17,229 nt of DNA from a virus (lineage: Duplodnaviria > Heunggongvirae > Uroviricota > Caudoviricetes), in IMG/VR virus record IMGVR_UViG_2751185970_000003, one strand, 5' to 3'. A program made the translations under genes and the position numbers. Under the pieces are notes generated by a model. That model was given only the letters and a program-made list of their open reading frames with translations. It did no database searches and was not told where the DNA came from. Of the stretch, positions 9,355-17,229 are shown one piece after another (position 1 is the first letter of the stretch; every line of letters starts with the position of its first letter).

Positions 9355-10155
9355 TTAACCGCGCTTCGCCTTCTGCGTCGCGGTGGTTTTTCGTGTTGCA
9401 GGCTTCCGCGTTGTCTTTTTACTTTTGCTGCTTTCGTCCTGCGCCTGCTGTGCGCTGGCGTCTTCTGGTTCGGCTGCGGAATCGGCTTTTTTCAGGGCGC
9501 GGGAAAGGGTTGCAATCTCGCGTTTCACACCTGCGTTCGGGTTCAGGTGCATTGCTTCGCGCAGCAGCTTCAGTGACAGGGCCATGCTGTCCGCATCACT
9601 CAGGCCACGGCGGGCAAAGGCGCACGCTTTGCATAATTTGGCGCGCACTTCGTCCGGCATGTCCTGGTCGGTGACAATCTCCCGGAGGGTGTCCAGTGGT
9701 TCGATAAAGGCGGACAAATCCGCGTCGGCATCCGTCCCGGCCTGCGTCAGTACCGGATTACAGATTTCTTCGGTCAGTACCGTGGCAGCAGTACGGCCAA
9801 AGTTATCCGGCATGATGAGGTTGTGACGGACTACATACGCGCCGATACGCAGCGCAAGCGGAAGATCGCCACAGTCAATCGCCCACACCATCAGCGTGGC
9901 AATCACTTCATCCTGCTGCCCGCCGTCAGCCTCCAGCGTTCCCTCAATCCAGCCGGAAAAATCCGGCAACAACTCTTTTTTGATGGCGGCTTTCGCGCTT
10001 CTGGCCTGTACGCCCTTAAGCCGGGCCTGTGCCAGACGCAGACGATACAGCACCTCTTCATGCGCGGTACGCGCGGCGTGGTCCACGCCTTCATTCGCCC
10101 GGCCTGCGCGCTGTGCCATCACGTTCTGCCAGTGTTGTTGTGCAGGAGTAATCAT
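9355..10155 (-). CDS. M: Terminase endonuclease (small) subunit gpM
   Basis: 266 aa, with a GGAGAG ribosome-binding site upstream of the ATG at 10155. Its position after the capsid gene and its basic C-terminal tail (KKTTRKPATRKTTATQKAKRG) fit P2 gpM. Confidence 0.85.
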   Translation of the reverse strand: MITPAQQHWQNVMAQRAGRANEGVDHAARTAHEEVLYRLRLAQARLKGVQARSAKAAIKKELLPDFSGWIEGTLEADGGQQDEVIATLMVWAIDCGDLPLALRIGAYVVRHNLIMPDNFGRTAATVLTEEICNPVLTQAGTDADADLSAFIEPLDTLREIVTDQDMPDEVRAKLCKACAFARRGLSDADSMALSLKLLREAMHLNPNAGVKREIATLSRALKKADSAAEPEDASAQQAQDESSKSKKTTRKPATRKTTATQKAKRG

Positions 10156-10200: not shown

Positions 10201-11252
10201 TTAGCTGTCGGCGAACTTCAGGCCAGTAACCATCGCGCACTTGCCATAGTCTTCAACGACATAAGCGTCATTGATGGACTGGTAGGTGGCGATGCGGTTG
10301 TATTCCGGCTCGTCTTTCATCAGGCGACGCATTGAACCTTTCTGCCAGTAAATCGACAGGTTGTTGAACGAGGTGATCAGCATCGTTGCATCCGGGAAGA
10401 ACGGCGCAAGGAACACGCCCAGCCCGCCAATGGTGCGCGATGACAGGATGAGCTGCCCGGCGAGTAATTCCGCATTGGGATTCTGGCCGCTGATGCTGTT
10501 CAGCACGGGCAGACGCAGCGAGTTAAACAGGTTGCGCCCCATAATCACCACGAGGTCGTCAGCTTCCTTGTGCCATTCATCCAGCAGGGATGAACGCGCG
10601 TCCTGTACCAGTGCATCAGCGTTCGCATACTTACCCGCGTGCGCCACGGTGTTGTCCATGTTGCGGGAGGTCAGCGTCACGTCATTCATAACGCGTTCGC
10701 TGGCGTCGGTTCTGATGTGCTCCAGCCAGCCCACGTTAACGTCCTGAAGCAGCTTGTTGGTGCTGAAGTTGGACTCATCCGCGTGAGACGTGCCGTTGAA
10801 ACCGATCATGATGCGGTCAAGCGCCACCTGTCGGGCAATCTGTGCGCTGATGCGGGACTGAAAATCAGGGTGTGCCGACCAGGCATCAAGCTGCGGATAC
10901 GAAATAAACGTGTCGTAGTTCACCTGTTCACACTGATATTTGCGGTTTTTCAGATCAACCACGTTATTCGGGTTACGGCGTTTTGTGCCGTCATAACTGG
11001 TATTCGTGCGCGCAATCGGTCCTGTGGTATCCAGGAGGATTTTTTCGCCTTTCTGGTCGGTCACGCCGATCACGTTATTTTTTTCGTAAATTCGGTACTT
11101 TCCTTTGAGGCGTTTTCAAAACGCTGCTGCACCGCGGGTTCCACGGTAAATCGCGACACCAGTGCAGATACCGGGATATTATTAAGCGACACCTGCTGCG
11201 CCATATAGCAACCCAGCTTGTTGCGGGTAATATCTGACATCACCAGATTCAT
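10201..11252 (-). pseudogene. N: Major capsid protein gpN, interrupted by a 1-bp frameshift in a homopolymer (T7 at 11078..11084)
   Basis: The ATG at 11252 has an AAGGAG ribosome-binding site 9 nt upstream. The first 60 codons (...FTVEPAVQQRFENASKESTEFTKK) end at a stop at 11070; the rest (...NVIGVTDQKGEKILLDTTG...NLSIYWQKG...YVVEDYGKCAMV) is in the -1 frame. One extra T/A in the run would give a continuous ~350-aa P2 gpN-like protein. Confidence 0.75.
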
Positions 11253-12266: not shown

Positions 12267-14018
12267 ATGATTCAGGACGCTTTTGTGCGCCAGCGTGCGC
12301 GGCAACTTTACTGGCAGGGTTATCCGCCCGCAGAAATATCACGTCTGATGGGAATAAACCCGAACACGATTTATGCGTGGAAAAAACGTGACCAGTGGGA
12401 TGAAACGCCACCCGGGCAGCGTGTCACGCAGTCCATCGATGCGCGCCTCATCCAGCTTACTGAAAAACAGAATAAAACAGGCGGTGACTTTAAGGAAATA
12501 GACCTGCTGACCCGGCAGCTTAAAAAGCTGCATGATGGCCAGCCGGATGTGATGGCCGCAGGAAAGAAAGGCCGGGCGAAAAAACTCAAAAATCATTTCA
12601 CGCCGGAACAGATTGCCGCACTGCGGGAAAAAATCATCAGCAGGCTGGAGTGGCATCAGCGGGGCTGGTTTGACTCCCTGACCCTTTGCAGGGAAGCCGG
12701 GATACGTAACAGGATGATCCTGAAATCCCGACAGATTGGGGCGACCTGGTATTTTGCACAGGAAGCACTGCTGATGGCGCTGCGTGACGATGTGGCGCAA
12801 CCTTACCAGCGTAACCAGATTTTTTTGTCTGCGTCGCGTCGTCAGGCGTTCCAGTTTAAAAGCATTATTCAGAAGGCCGCGGCTGAAGTTGATGTGGAGC
12901 TGAAAGGGGGCGATAAAATCATCCTCTCCAACGGCGCAGAGCTGCATTTTCTCGGCACTTCTGCTGCGTCGGCACAGTCCTATACGGGCAATTTTTATTT
13001 TGATGAATTTTTCTGGGTCAGTCGCTTTGCTGAACTGCGCAAGGTGGCTGGCGCTATGGCAACCCTCAGCGGACTGCGGCGCACCTACTTCTCCACGCCA
13101 TCCACCGAAACGCACGAGGCATACGCCTACTGGAACGGCGACCGCTGGAACGAGAAAAAGGCCTCGCATAAACGCCAGCGTTTTTCTGTGGACTGGAAAA
13201 CGCTGCATAACGGGCTTATCTGCCCTGACCGGACGTGGCGGCAAATTGTCACGCTGGAAGATGTGGTTAATCACGGCTGGAAACACACCGATATCGACGA
13301 AATTCGTGATGAAAACACCGAAGACGAGTTCCTCAATCTCTATATGTGTGAGTTTGTCCGCGAAGGGGAATCGGCATTTAACCTGAATATCCTGATTGGC
13401 TGCGGCGTTGACGGATACGACGACTGGAAAGACTGGAAACCTTTTGCTCCCCGCCCGATGGGGAATCGTCCGGTATGGATTGGGTATGACGCAAACGGCA
13501 GCAGTGGCAACGGCGACAGCGGCGCTGTGTCCGTGGTGGTTCCTCCGTCTGTTCCTGGTGGCCGTTTTCGAACGGTGGAGACGCGACGCGTTCAGGGGCT
13601 GGAGTTTGAAGAACAGGCCAGAGTCATTGAAGAGTTCACGTGTCGCTACAACGTGGAACACATCGGCATTGATGTGACGGGCGGGAACGGGGAGGCTGTT
13701 TATCAGATAGTGAAACGGTTTTTCCCTGCCGCTATTCCGTACACCTTCACGCTGTCATCAAAACGGTCGCTGGTACTGAAAATGCTGCAAATAATGCGTG
13801 CCGGGCGGTGGGAATACGATCGCGCCGAACGCGAGCTGGTCGCGGCCTTTAACGCCGTGCGTAAGGTGAAAACACCGGGCGGCTTTATCACTTACGAAAC
13901 GGACCGAGCGAGGGGGATCAGCCACGGCGACCTTGCGTGGGCAACCATGCTTGCTGTCATTAACGAACCGATTGGCGGCGAAGGAGAAAACGAGCGTTTC
14001 ACGGTTATGGAGTTCTGA
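12267..14018 (+). CDS. P: Terminase large subunit (ATPase) gpP
   Basis: 583 aa, with a GGGGGAG ribosome-binding site. The N-terminal MIQDAFVRQRARQLYWQGY...ISRLMGINPNTIYAWKKRDQW region and the overall size match P2 gpP. It overlaps the Q start by 1 nt (TGATG). Confidence 0.93.
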   Translation: MIQDAFVRQRARQLYWQGYPPAEISRLMGINPNTIYAWKKRDQWDETPPGQRVTQSIDARLIQLTEKQNKTGGDFKEIDLLTRQLKKLHDGQPDVMAAGKKGRAKKLKNHFTPEQIAALREKIISRLEWHQRGWFDSLTLCREAGIRNRMILKSRQIGATWYFAQEALLMALRDDVAQPYQRNQIFLSASRRQAFQFKSIIQKAAAEVDVELKGGDKIILSNGAELHFLGTSAASAQSYTGNFYFDEFFWVSRFAELRKVAGAMATLSGLRRTYFSTPSTETHEAYAYWNGDRWNEKKASHKRQRFSVDWKTLHNGLICPDRTWRQIVTLEDVVNHGWKHTDIDEIRDENTEDEFLNLYMCEFVREGESAFNLNILIGCGVDGYDDWKDWKPFAPRPMGNRPVWIGYDANGSSGNGDSGAVSVVVPPSVPGGRFRTVETRRVQGLEFEEQARVIEEFTCRYNVEHIGIDVTGGNGEAVYQIVKRFFPAAIPYTFTLSSKRSLVLKMLQIMRAGRWEYDRAERELVAAFNAVRKVKTPGGFITYETDRARGISHGDLAWATMLAVINEPIGGEGENERFTVMEF

Positions 14019-15064
14019 TGAGCAGAAAAAATAAAAAAGTGCGCATGAGTTCACGCATTGATCTCGCTGATGCGCTCAGGAAAGAATCATCGCTCAGTGC
14101 ATTCACATTTGATGGTCCTTATCGCCTGACCGGGCATGACCTGCTGGACAATATGTACTGTGCTGATAACGGGCGGTGGTATGAAACCCCGGTGGACTGG
14201 TACGGTCTGGCAAGAGCTGCCCGGCAAACGTCCTGGCATCAGTCTGCGCTTTATTTTAAGCGCAATGTATTGCTCGGTTGCTACATCCCGCACCCGCTGC
14301 TTTCCCGGCAGGATTTCTCGGCGCTGGCGCTGGACTGGTTTGTGTTCGGTAACGCATTCCTTGAGCTTCGAAGCAATATGCTCGGCGAACCGCTTAAATT
14401 ACGGCACGCCCTGGCGAAATACATGCGACGCGGAAGCGATCTTGAATCATGGAGGTATGTGCAGGATGGCAAGGATGCGTTTCAGTTTCGCCCAGGCAAA
14501 GTGTGTCACCTGATGAATCCTGACATTAACCAGGAAATCTACGGCATGCCGGAATATCTCGGCGCATTACTCTCGGCCAGCCTGTCTCATTCGGCGGACA
14601 TGTTCAGAAAACTGTATTACGACAACGGATCCCACGCCGGGTGCATCATCTACATCGGTGCCGCGCAGGTAAACCGCGAAAGCATGGACTCCCTGAAAGA
14701 AACGCTACAGGGTGCGCGTGGTGGTGGTGCGTTTAAAAACGTGCTCATTCATGCGCCCAACGGGGGCAAAGAGGGGGTGCAAATTTTGCCGTTCCAGCAG
14801 ATCACCGCAAAGGATGAGTTCATGAATGTTAAGGCGGCATCCCGTGATGATGTGCTGGCTGCGCACCGCGTTCCGCCGCAACTGATGGGGGCGATGCCGG
14901 GTGAAAAAAGTGCGTTTGGTGATGTGGAGAAGGCCGCGCGGGTTTACGCAATTAACGAGCTGATGCCCGTCATGGAGGCCATGAAGCACATCAATGACTG
15001 GCTTGGCGAAGAGGTGATCCGCTTTAACCCTTACGCACTGTTAGACATCCAGCCCACATCCTGA
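14018..15064 (+). CDS. Q: Portal (capsid vertex) protein gpQ
   Basis: 348 aa, MSRKNKKVRMSSRIDLADALRKES...; the size and position downstream of P fit P2 gpQ. Confidence 0.92.
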   Translation: MSRKNKKVRMSSRIDLADALRKESSLSAFTFDGPYRLTGHDLLDNMYCADNGRWYETPVDWYGLARAARQTSWHQSALYFKRNVLLGCYIPHPLLSRQDFSALALDWFVFGNAFLELRSNMLGEPLKLRHALAKYMRRGSDLESWRYVQDGKDAFQFRPGKVCHLMNPDINQEIYGMPEYLGALLSASLSHSADMFRKLYYDNGSHAGCIIYIGAAQVNRESMDSLKETLQGARGGGAFKNVLIHAPNGGKEGVQILPFQQITAKDEFMNVKAASRDDVLAAHRVPPQLMGAMPGEKSAFGDVEKAARVYAINELMPVMEAMKHINDWLGEEVIRFNPYALLDIQPTS

Positions 15065-15091
15065 CGCGCTTCGCTTGTCTGCTGCTTCGCC

Positions 15092-15114
15092 GGGGCATAA
15101 AAAATTTATGCCCC
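15092..15114 (+). terminator. Hairpin immediately downstream of Q
   Basis: GGGGCATAAA-aaa-TTTATGCCCC has a 10-bp stem and begins 28 nt after the Q stop. There is no strong U-tract, so it may act as an RNA stability element or weak terminator. Confidence 0.45.
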
Positions 15115-15283
15115 GACTCTCCAGCTCCTGTATCAGTCAGATAATTTCACGACGCCTTCCAGTTTATCGCCACCATCGACGGTCAGACTCTTACGCAATC
15201 CCACCGCGTTGACTGCATGTTCTCGCCGCCTCAGTGCGATTTTGACGGCCTTACCTTTCACCCCATCAAATCAGAATCCCTCA

Positions 15284-15314
15284 CGTATTTTTCACGCTCA
15301 GCGTGAGAAATACG
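15284..15314. other. 31-bp near-perfect palindrome in the cos-proximal non-coding region
   Basis: CGTATTTTTCACGCT-c-AGCGTGAGAAATACG has 15-bp arms with a single mismatch; it is a candidate protein-binding or packaging element. Confidence 0.6.
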
Positions 15315-15393
15315 GCCATTCTGTCGTGTCGCTGCGACATCGTTAAGGGAACGCTATTTACCCCCTGAAACGCGGGCTGTTCCCCCGTCACCT

Positions 15394-15418
15394 GCGCGCA
15401 GAAAAAGCGCGTTTTTTT
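15394..15418 (+). terminator. Rho-independent terminator (plus strand)
   Basis: GCGCGC-agaaaaa-GCGCG followed by TTTTTTT at 15412..15418. Confidence 0.6.
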
Positions 15419-15488
15419 GTGCACGCACGGATCCTTGACGGATCCAGCCGCCACGCGGGCTGGAAGGGCAAAAATTCGTTCAAAAAAA

Positions 15489-15515
15489 TTGTGCAAATTT
15501 GTGCACTATTGTGCA
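15489..15515. repeat. Three direct TTGTGCA repeats with exact 10-bp phasing
   Basis: aTTGTGCAaa tTTGTGCAct aTTGTGCAgc at 15489, 15499 and 15509, preceded by an A-tract. The one-helical-turn spacing suggests an array of protein-binding sites. Confidence 0.6.
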
Positions 15516-15517
15516 GC

Positions 15518-15541
15518 AGGGCGATGTGCGATTATCGCCCT
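15518..15541 (-). terminator. Stem-loop 14 nt downstream of the Ea22-like gene stop (possible terminator)
   Basis: AGGGCGAT-gtgcgatt-ATCGCCCT has an 8-bp stem. No immediate U-tract follows on the minus strand. Confidence 0.3.
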
Positions 15542-15554
15542 GGTTTGAGGGGGA

Positions 15555-16145
15555 TCAGGTGTTATTTTTATCTGTCGTCAGTGGGCTAAACCATCCACAA
15601 TTTACATCGCATGACTGATGCGTTCTGTCCTCGTGTTTCTCCTGCCACAATGCTTTTCCGCCAGCCTTTATGATGGCTCTTTCAACATCCCGCTCGTATC
15701 GCAAGGGCTGAAATACGTCATTAATGAAATATTCGCTTATGTCCGGAAGCGATACTGCAAAATTATTTGTTTGTTGCGCCGTCCTGCTATGCAGCAAAGC
15801 GGCATGCTTTAATGCGTCCTGTGCTTTCTGGAATTTAAGTGCATAGTCAGTGGCGATTTTTTCCAGTTCAGCGATTCGGTTGTCTTTGGTTTCCAGCCAA
15901 TCAAGTAGCGCCAATACTTCAGGATCCCCGACATCCAACACTGTTACGCGTGATTTTTCATAATGTTCGTCAGCAAGAGTTCGGCCAATTTTGAAATCTC
16001 CATCATCACCATAACCGGAGCAGGCATAAACAACCTGTGCTCCAGATATTCGCTGAATTGACATTTCCTCGCCGCAAATAGGGCATTTCGGTACTGGCAC
16101 AGGTGAATAACGTTCACGTAATGCCTGATAGTTGATTTCGCTCAT
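15555..16145 (-). CDS. Ead/Ea22-like family protein with an N-terminal zinc-ribbon (CPICGEEM...YACSGYG) and a central coiled-coil; function unknown
   Basis: 196 aa, with an AAGGAGA ribosome-binding site 8 nt upstream of the ATG. MSEINYQALRERY... and PEVLALLDWLETKDNRIAELEK resemble the Ea22-like proteins of enterobacterial prophages that I remember. The gene is visibly lower in GC than the flanking phage genes. Confidence 0.7.
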   Translation of the reverse strand: MSEINYQALRERYSPVPVPKCPICGEEMSIQRISGAQVVYACSGYGDDGDFKIGRTLADEHYEKSRVTVLDVGDPEVLALLDWLETKDNRIAELEKIATDYALKFQKAQDALKHAALLHSRTAQQTNNFAVSLPDISEYFINDVFQPLRYERDVERAIIKAGGKALWQEKHEDRTHQSCDVNCGWFSPLTTDKNNT

Positions 16146-16208
16146 TAAGTCGTTCTCCTTGTTTATGTTCTGAGGTGGAGAGCAGGGCGAACTCGCCCTG
16201 ATGTTGTG

Positions 16209-16520
16209 TTATTCAGGAAATAACGCCCGGATATTTCCGGCCATCTGACTGGTTATCTGTGCGGTTGATACTGGCTGTGATGCGGGGCGTTCTGTCCTGG
16301 TTTGTGTCACTGATAACGCTTCATCACCAGCCCATGCAGCCAGTCGATAAGCCTCTGCCGGATTCATTTTCAGAAGTGCCAGCCCGGCCAGAAAAGCCAC
16401 GCGTTGGCCGCTTTTGCGGGCTTCTGGTGTAAGGCTGTCCAGCCAGGCGCATGCTTCTCCTTCGTTCTTGACGGCGGTGGGCTTCAGATAGAAACTTATC
16501 CGTCTGGTTGGAGTCGTCAT
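16209..16520 (-). CDS. parR: ParR/StbB-like ribbon-helix-helix centromere-binding protein
   Basis: 103 aa from the ATG at 16520 (MTTPTRRISFYLKP...AWLDSLTPEARKSGQRVAFLAGLALL...), resembling R1 ParR (RRTIAFKLNP...LDSIPQGERSRLNRAALTAGLALY). It starts 4 nt after the parM stop, the same gene order as R1 parM-parR. Confidence 0.7.
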   Translation of the reverse strand: MTTPTRRISFYLKPTAVKNEGEACAWLDSLTPEARKSGQRVAFLAGLALLKMNPAEAYRLAAWAGDEALSVTQTRTERPASQPVSTAQITSQMAGNIRALFPE

Positions 16521-16524
16521 TGGT

Positions 16525-17130
16525 TTACTCCTTGTCCATTGCGTACAGCCCATTAACCAGAGCAAACTGTGGCACCCCGTCCGCGATGAAAGTCGCATTA
16601 ACTCCGCAGGCTTCGCGGATAGCGGGTGCCACAATCTCCGCCCCTCCACCGACAACCATCACCCGCCCGTAACCCGAAAAAACCGCCAGCGCGCGGATCA
16701 CGCGTTGTTTCAGTGTTTCTTCCTTTTCACGAATTACCGCCATCAGGCTGGCGTAATGCGCGTCATTGTGGATGTGCTGGCGCAGCCAGGCTTCATCATG
16801 GCGATGTTCGATAATGGTATTGGCGATGTGGTGACTGGTGCGCATACCGTTAGTGGCCATCACCGACAGTACGGCATCGGCCATCAGAGAAACGCCCACG
16901 TGTGGATCGCAAAACACCTGGCTGATACCTGCCAGTTGCCCCTGAACCTTTGCCACATCCAGCGTGGTTCCGCCCAAATCCACAATCAGCAGGGATTCAA
17001 ACGGACTCATGTCAGCCAGTGCCTTAAAGCCAGCCGGAATGGATTCAGGCATAACCTGTACGTTACGGATAGTGAATGCTTCGCCGTTCTGGTACTCCAC
17101 CGGGCGCATGACGTTCGCTTTTTTGCGGTT
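16525..17130 (-). pseudogene. parM: ParM/StbA-like actin-type partition ATPase, 5'-truncated (about 115 N-terminal residues missing) by an IS insertion
   Basis: The translation ...NRKKANVMRPVEYQNGEAFTIRNVQVMPESIPAGFKAL...LLIVDLGGTTLDVAKV...VFSGYGRVMVVGGGAEIVAPAI...FALVNGLYAMDKE aligns with R1 ParM from about residue 120 onward (phosphate-2 and adenosine motifs present). The coding sequence abuts the IS terminus at 17131 and the only in-frame start is a TTG inside the IS end. Confidence 0.75.
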
Positions 17131-17229
17131 TGAAGTGGTCAACAAAAACTGGCCACCGAGTTAGAGTTTTTCCAGTATCGATTTTCCGATTCGTTTGGGG
17201 GGAACCCACCGTTATATTCGTGCGGTCTT
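17131..17229. mobile_element. Terminus of an IS3-family-like insertion sequence (IS911-like end), continuing beyond the window
   Basis: The sequence begins TGAAGTGGTCAACAAAAACTGGCCACC, which resembles the IS911-type terminal repeat (TGAAGTGG...TGGCCACC) as I recall it, exactly where ParM homology stops. No ORF is included in the 99 bp available. Confidence 0.5.

Follow-up and report, generated by a model that had tools for sequence, protein, structure and literature searches.

The stretch of DNA examined here, called the window throughout (17,229 nt; IMG/VR virus record IMGVR_UViG_2751185970_000003), is a P88-like prophage of the genus Xuanwuvirus in the P2-family Peduoviridae, with a gene order that runs opposite to the P2 map. 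Within the non-coding gap that follows its portal gene Q, a 161-bp block at 15356-15516 is very probably the cohesive-end site (cos) of this prophage, a reading to which we assign a probability of about 0.8-0.9. Toward the lower end of that range stands the full account, in which the block is a cos built like the site of P2, 186 and P4 with a different recognition sequence. A cos as such is expected, every cos phage needing one, and the novelty lies in which sequence it is; in the literature searched, no mention was found of the core sequence in a relevant context or of a cos site for P88 or Xuanwuvirus. An earlier note on this DNA, made from its letters, had described a 490-bp non-coding gap at 15065-15554 and named it as the place where cos and the packaging signals are expected. 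The first statement holds and the second is supported, with cos lying beyond Q and oriented as in P2. The gap runs from the Q stop codon (15062-15064) to the next supported gene (15555-16145) and its open reading frames (ORFs) have no coding signature, while satellite sharing, core conservation and geometry all point to cos in this place. The block is made up of the following parts.

15356-15516, plus strand: whole cos block, 161 bp, the DNA common to the phage and to terminase-less satellites; its first part, counted outward from Q, is a GC-rich flank.
15376-15394, plus strand: predicted cut region (cosN), placed by motif geometry, an architecture scan and a bridging lineage; sequence GCTGTTCCCCCGTCACCTG.
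15395-15418, plus strand: terminator-like module next to cosN, 24 nt, a weak hairpin followed by T7; same length and position as CGCCCGCTTCACGGGGCGGTTTTA in P2.
15419-15424, plus strand: proximal GTGCAC, its GTGCA invariant in the lineage alignment; corresponds to AATGCA at the end of the 55-bp cos of P2 and P4.
15425-15481, plus strand: spacer of fixed length and variable sequence, with ACGGATCC twice, the dyad CCAGCC/GGCTGG at 15444-15463, and A-tracts.
15429-15445, plus strand: GGATCC-TTGAC-GGATCC, inside the direct repeat of two ACGGATCC copies (15427-15445).
15482-15515, plus strand: A7 and three TTGTGCA copies, spaced by 10 nt, about one helical turn; presumed terminase-binding array.

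Sixteen P88-like phage records are 92-98% identical to the gap from 15065 to 15515; the similarity breaks off at 15515-15516 in most of them and at other positions in three. Among 68 distinct Xuanwuvirus-like sequences, positions 15371-15397 are invariant. In the Novemvirus phage phiT5282H of Enterobacter, whose portal is 69% identical, only 15371-15515 of the whole gap is still recognisable. Within E. coli, 1140 of 5426 genomes carry the block, or about one fifth of complete genomes. When one genome per species was scanned, the 22-mer core at 15378-15399 was found without a mismatch in 18 species genomes from about 11 genera of Enterobacterales (Kluyvera, Erwinia, Pantoea, Mixta, Kosakonia, Enterobacter, Citrobacter, Salmonella, Escherichia, Izhakiella and Apirhabdus). 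All 18 matches are accompanied by the T-run, a proximal copy of the (G/T)TGCA type and the three-copy TTGTGCA array at unchanged distances. A portal gene lies just upstream of the core in 13 of these genomes and is absent in the other five, one of which has only 2 nt upstream, so that four can be judged.

The heptamer TTGTGCA occurs six times in the 17.2-kb window. Four of the copies (15417, 15489, 15499 and 15509), all on the plus strand, fall within 99 nt, where about 0.02 copies would be expected; the last three are the phased repeat array that had been noticed before. Its orientation and exact distance from the core are kept in phages and satellites regardless of the adjoining gene or its strand. 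The spacer sequence is replaced in satellites and in Novemvirus-type phages, and the 72-nt start-to-start distance is retained. Two further elements were sought in this part of the block. An inspection of the A-rich spacer by eye for an IHF site gave only an off-by-one near match, and none is claimed. A late-promoter site of the Ogr type (TGT-N12-ACA) was considered for the array and set aside: the window has TGT-N12-ACT, the motif is low in information, and no gene lies at the right distance.

Two side observations concern the distribution of the block and its surroundings. Three phage lineages share the sequence GCCATTCTG on the upstream side of cos (window 15315-15323; locus L008 at about 2882; locus L119 at about 7580), at differing distances; it is not in satellites, and the recurrence may be due to chance. 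Separately, a record labelled 'Vagococcus sp. WN89Y' (L147, NZ_JBQPOM010000071.1) holds the same cos block with a portal 98.6% identical over the available 222 aa; the Gram-positive label suggests assembly contamination or mislabelling.

A further line of evidence comes from satellite islands. Two of them, L006 and L122, have neither terminase nor portal; their products include a capsid protein, an integrase, an Ogr/Delta zinc finger and a primase of the toprim type. By blastn they are 80-82% identical to the window over 15356-15516 and match it nowhere else, except for a weak match of 133 nt inside the capsid gene in L006; the capsid proteins of both islands are about 35% identical to that of the window. 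In E. coli NCTC9082 (L006, NZ_LR134080.1, 4008176-4018320) the block is 78% identical and lies between an ogr/Delta-like gene and the integrase. The two portal-less loci that were scanned against Pfam, L154 and L149, both have a P2-family capsid gene, and L154 has Ogr/Delta and an integrase as well. Since satellites that lack terminase and portal carry the block, the terminase of a helper could presumably package them. P2 and P4 stand in the same relation, sharing essentially only the 55-bp cos (PMC9594776, PMC9122126); in the window family, too, helper and satellite share essentially cos alone.

The island recurs in L006, L105 and L122 (IMG/VR), L157 (Escherichia sp.), L154 (Izhakiella), L149 (Apirhabdus), L143 (Candidatus Erwinia dacicola) and probably L142 (Kluyvera). 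Its order is a capsid gene (430-455 aa, PF05125; product about 35% identical to phage gpN), a protein of about 240 aa that matches no Pfam family, ogr/Delta, the cos block and an integrase, with a toprim primase of about 890 aa in L006 and L122, where the locus reaches that far; terminase and portal are missing throughout. It looks like a P4-style satellite that has its own capsid protein and copies a GTGCA-type cos. In the satellite literature checked, no mention of capsid-carrying P4-like satellites was found. A copy of the block with 60-80% identity is present in 23 E. coli records, one of which (H77) was inspected. A second kind of island is seen in L108 (IMG/VR), where cos has diverged further and the TTGTGCA array (at 10635) is retained. 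Its genes resemble the scaffold, capsid and small-terminase region of the window (26-46%, tblastx) and are joined by ORFs of 871 aa and 437 aa; only their length and location suggest that these are a primase and an integrase. Neither a portal gene nor one for the large terminase was seen in this island.

The geometry of the block can be compared directly with that of known sites. Ziermann and Calendar are said to have described, in 1990, P2-type cos sites with 19-nt 5' cohesive ends of the form GGCG(A/T)GGCGGGGAAAGCA(C/T), and 55 bp are reportedly common to P2 and P4. For the comparison, the genome ends of P2, P4 and 186 were joined and read in the orientation of the window. All three then present the same order: first GCGCGC, next the 19 nt of the cohesive end, then a hairpin and TTTTAATGCA, with which the 55 bp common to P2 and P4 end, and after these an unrelated spacer and three copies of ATGCA. 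Counted from the last cohesive-end base, ATGCA starts at +24, +96, +106 and +118/119 in these phages. GTGCA starts in the window at 15419, 15491, 15501 and 15511, or +24, +96, +106 and +116 on the same scale. The 72-nt and 10-nt start-to-start steps are thus identical, whereas the last repeat lies 10 nt from the second in the window and 12-13 nt from it in P2, P4 and 186. With +24 set at 15419, the 19-nt core falls at 15376-15394 and the neighbouring 24-nt module at 15395-15418. An ungapped scan of both window strands with the 138-nt layouts of P2, P4 and 186 peaked at register 15369 (cosN 15376), rank 1 of 34,184 (z 4.5).

A bridging lineage, represented by loci L119 and L022, supports the same register. 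These P2-like prophages have the same TTGTGCA array and the core GCGCGCTTGCTCCCCCGCCTCGCC, and their M, P and Q proteins are nearer to those of the window than to those of P2. The best match to the P2 55-mer in their whole loci lies at offset -118 from the array, equivalent to window position 15371, with z 4.4-5.3 and 0-1 of 200 shuffles as good. On this footing the cut region is somewhat better than evenly likely to be at 15376-15394. Following the P2 convention, the 5' cohesive end is predicted to be CAGGTGACGGGGGAACAGC, with nick positions placed to within about +/-3 nt.

Two genes of the window would supply the proteins that act on this site:

9355-10155, minus strand: small terminase subunit (gpM homologue), PF05944 (E 5.6e-37), 36% identity to P2 gpM; presumed, by analogy, to bind DNA and read the GTGCA repeats.
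12267-14018, plus strand: large terminase subunit (gpP homologue), 583 aa, Terminase_6N/6C Pfam matches, 44% identity to P2 gpP; presumed to be the enzyme that cuts at cos.

If the site works as in P2, the four GTGCA copies would be bound by gpM; the fixed geometry of 72 + 10 + 10 nt could put them on one face of bent or wrapped DNA, with A-tracts flanking the copies. Bound gpM would then position gpP for staggered nicks in the core, leaving 5' cohesive ends of about 19 nt with the predicted sequence given above. The terminator-like stretch at 15395-15418 would be the hairpin-plus-T-run module that forms part of cos in P2, P4 and 186, and helper terminase would package satellites through the copied block.

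Several results weigh against the assignment of cos to this block. The 19-mer GGCG(A/T)GGCGGGGAAAGCA(C/T) has no match within three mismatches on either strand of the whole window, and the predicted core agrees with the P2 core at 10 of 19 positions. When the P2, P4 and 186 55-mers were locally aligned to the whole window, the best matches lay elsewhere and within the range of shuffled sequences, and the 55-mer alone ranks the predicted register 12-19 among some 17,000 plus-strand positions. Local alignment gives no significant match, and the case cannot rest on direct similarity of sequence. Of the comparisons with the cos regions of P2 and 186, a check that the earlier note had proposed, the layout scan gives first rank and the 19-mer search and local alignment give nothing. 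The lack of a P2-type 19-mer implies that the window site belongs to a different specificity group, and the divergence of the terminase from that of P2 (36% and 44% identity) fits a changed cos specificity. A further objection is one of design: the first conservation survey was anchored on the array, so that 15489-15506 was conserved there by construction. The search with the 22-mer, anchored on the core, removes this circularity.

Record and contig ends likewise lend the assignment no support. None of the phage records matching the gap is cut at the predicted site, the linear record P88_4B11 breaks inside the block at 15470/15471, and IMG/VR contig ends near the block are scattered. The first base of P88_4B11 was picked by its authors 'relative to reference genomes' (PMC6969025), so that its break is not a mapped end. 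Contigs encoding an identical portal are all from bacterial assemblies.

Among other explanations for the conserved sequence, the one that survives best, though still improbable, is that 15394-15418 is a working rho-independent terminator which ends either a small RNA or read-through from P-Q, its conservation reflecting RNA function. The earlier note had called this site a canonical terminator and had raised the possibility of a small RNA or a structured 3' untranslated region ending at 15418. By pattern the site qualifies: 15394-15412 and the T-run give 6 pairs (5 of them GC), a 7-nt loop and T7. P2, P4 and 186 have a hairpin with TTTT in the same place and orientation, and a block to transcription through cos could be a second function common to all of them. 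The stem nevertheless folds no better than shuffled sequences (z -1.4; 19 of 200 shuffles do as well). In the structure of lowest energy the T-run is paired with the A-run and the stem does not form. Covariation is equally unhelpful to this explanation: across 12 lineages 55% of cells are paired, with 0 compensatory changes, and these values are attained by every shuffle. GCGCGC and the T-run, the latter being the conserved part of the 15395-15418 module, are retained in satellites and Novemvirus-type phages; the complementary arm is not. A strong hairpin is moreover already present after Q, 280 nt upstream. A pattern scan of 14900-15800 found no promoter-like site, and Rfam, searched at a permissive E-value over 14500-16500, returned no family. 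Read-through from the P-Q operon past the hairpin at 15091-15115 could still bring a transcript to the site. The terminator stands as a pattern and falls on stability and covariation, and the small RNA or structured untranslated region lacks a promoter-like site, an Rfam match, excess stability and covariation alike.

Somewhat less probable again is the view that the A7 and TTGTGCA array (15482-15515) is mainly a transcription element, either a minus-strand terminator or insulator, which would keep transcription of the cargo from passing into cos and on, antisense, into Q, or else a promoter or operator of the cargo. The minus-strand sequence GTGCACAAATTTGCAC followed by AATTTTTTTG fits the terminator pattern, and the cargo gene is transcribed toward the array. 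Parallels exist in the relatives: in P2 the annotated old-tin transcripts begin some 150 nt from cos, close to the ATGCA array, and the 186 terminator t95b is found on the array side. Against this, the array hairpin is weak (about -6 kcal/mol, z -0.4), and the orientation of the array and its distance from the core are constant whatever gene adjoins it. A terminator would also not explain the fourth copy, which is located 72 nt away beside the core as it is in P2, P4 and 186.

It is very unlikely that the cut falls at either of the two cos-like stretches singled out in the earlier note, or elsewhere in the spacer, for example at 15470/15471. The stretches exist, at 15218-15236 and 15448-15463, and bear a loose resemblance to portions of the P2/186 core (CGCCGCCTC; on the other strand, GCGTGGCGG), and 15471 is the first base of one public linear record, P88_4B11. 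As cos cores both were rejected, being unconserved outside the genus. The first occurs only in Xuanwuvirus, is absent from satellites and from other lineages that share the block, and varies even inside the genus (15222-15229). The second, like 15470, lies in the spacer that differs between lineages and is replaced in satellites and Novemvirus-type phages, and its resemblance is on the strand opposite to that of P2; the P88_4B11 first base, as noted, is an unmapped choice.

Least probable of all is that the gap encodes minus-strand small proteins (P88 gp21, 47 aa, and gp22, 42 aa) and is conserved as coding sequence: P88 and some assemblies annotate ORFs at about 15133-15261 and 15281-15424, and 57 of 68 relatives keep the 42-aa ORF unbroken, but variable sites show no preference among codon positions (15/18/18, 18/15/15 and 25/23/22), 55 and 54 of the 68 relatives have interruptions in the 47-aa and the 71-aa ORF respectively, and the ORFs overlap the cos core. 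In P88 itself (NC_026014, L003), gp21 corresponds to about 15281-15424 and gp22 to about 15133-15261 of the window, and the two are probably annotation artefacts.

Three features of the gap exceed chance in structure or repetition. One is the repeat array treated above; the other two lie outside the cos block.

15091-15115, plus strand: post-Q hairpin, arms 15091-15101 and 15105-15115, 11 perfect pairs, -17.6 kcal/mol, z -5.2.
15284-15314, no strand assigned: 31-bp palindrome, arms 15284-15298 and 15300-15314, 93% complementary, -19.4 kcal/mol, z -7.0.

All features named in the earlier note are present in the sequence, with three coordinates off by one, that of GGATCC-TTGAC-GGATCC among them. 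The hairpin is invariant in the 68 relatives, and an unrelated GC hairpin occupies the same place in other lineages. The whole stretch from the Q stop through the hairpin and the next 35 nt (15061-15150) is almost invariant among these sequences, despite varying last codons of Q. The hairpin is probably the end or a stabiliser of the late P-Q transcript and an analogue of P2 tQ and 186 tW. As in those phages, a strong hairpin follows the portal stop at short distance, and all related lineages have one; it differs from tQ and tW in having no U-tract after the stem on either strand and in lying 26 nt past the stop rather than 5-8 nt.

The 31-bp palindrome, described in the earlier note as near-perfect, is unique in the window and specific to Xuanwuvirus. 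Its inner positions (15289-15309) are nearly invariant, one site varying in 12% of sequences, and its outer pairs decay without compensation. It is missing from satellites and Novemvirus-type phages, and because satellites do without it, packaging does not need it. The GGATCC pair and the GC dyad that follows (15429-15463) fold unexceptionally (z -0.5). Seen by eye, the spacers of P4 and 186 between the proximal and distal ATGCA hold GC-rich dyads (CCGCGCCGGGAATGGCGCGG; CGCCAGCTCTGGCG), and most GTGCA-type lineages have a short GC dyad of other sequence in roughly the same place, the fold of the window spacer being unexceptional.

In the window the genes run from small terminase M and large terminase P through portal Q to the gap, an Ead/Ea22-like gene and plasmid-partition genes. 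The features that flank the gap are these:

14018-15064, plus strand: portal gene Q, PF04860, 47% identity to P2 gpQ; its TGA stop at 15062-15064 is the left edge of the gap.
15555-16145, minus strand: Ead/Ea22-like cargo gene, PF13935 (E 2e-32), the next supported gene after the gap.
15517-16145, minus strand: variable hotspot cargo, including hairpins at 15517-15542 and 15539-15559, outside cos.

Beyond 15515 the cargo differs among otherwise identical phages, and P88 and other relatives carry other genes at this junction. A variable hotspot next to cos is known for P2-like phages (PMC9122126), and the block marks the exact left edge (15515/15516) of this defence and cargo hotspot. In the window the cargo begins right after the last repeat and consists of the single Ead/Ea22-like gene, transcribed toward cos. 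It has its own 9-bp hairpin at 15517-15542 and a plus-strand terminator-like site at 15539-15559. Between the cargo and the replication gene lie plasmid-type partition genes (Plasmid_stab_B and ParM/StbA, 16209-17145), which are likewise annotated in P88 and P88_4B11 and hint at a plasmid-like phase or a stabilisation function.

Taken more broadly, the results permit a tentative proposal whose parts, held together as one, fall a little short of even odds. P2-family phages of Enterobacterales would form at least two packaging-compatibility groups, one with an ATGCA-type cos (P2, 186 and P4) and one with a GTGCA-type cos (P88/Xuanwuvirus, Novemvirus and relatives). Both would keep a single protein-DNA geometry, with repeats at +24, +96, +106 and about +117. 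The GTGCA group would have its own satellites, apparently undescribed, with a P2-family capsid, Ogr/Delta, primase and integrase and no terminase. If this is true, the sequence type of cos predicts which helper mobilises which satellite, and the cos sequence becomes a handle for pairing the two. If the predicted ends are confirmed, they would give genomes of the GTGCA group a first base with biological meaning. The 161-bp fragment is a candidate for cosmids or transducing particles with P88-like helpers. Finally, the occurrence of identical 72 + 10 nt spacing in two otherwise diverged cos types constrains how the terminase of the P2 family holds DNA.

Set beside the cos sites of known phages, the window block shares its position and layout with those of the P2 type. 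As in P2 and 186, cos has the portal gene's 3' end on one side and a right-end hotspot on the other, with the C-rich strand running outward from the portal. P2, 186 and P4 likewise have a GC flank, a C-rich core of about 19 nt (TTCCCC(C)G), a 24-nt hairpin with a T-run, and a proximal (A/G)TGCA, and in P2, as in the window family, cos is common to phage and satellites that have no terminase. The differences are those of sequence and detail. The window repeat is GTGCA and that of P2, P4 and 186 is ATGCA. Pairing in the neighbouring hairpin is unconserved in the window's cos family; P2, P4 and 186 have a hairpin and TTTT within the 55-bp cos. The terminase subunits M and P share 36% and 44% identity with their P2 counterparts. 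From the Q stop to the core the window has 311 nt; in P2 the distance from the portal stop is 167 nt according to the P2 record, which corrects an earlier figure of about 130 bp. Phage lambda offers a more distant comparison. Its cos consists of cosQ, cosN and cosB, with 12-nt ends, three R sites and an IHF site at which bending is induced. The likeness to the window is one of general logic only: phased repeats for the small terminase lie to one side of the nicking site, and A/T tracts separate them. The window has, in place of the lambda arrangement, four short copies and one long fixed spacer.

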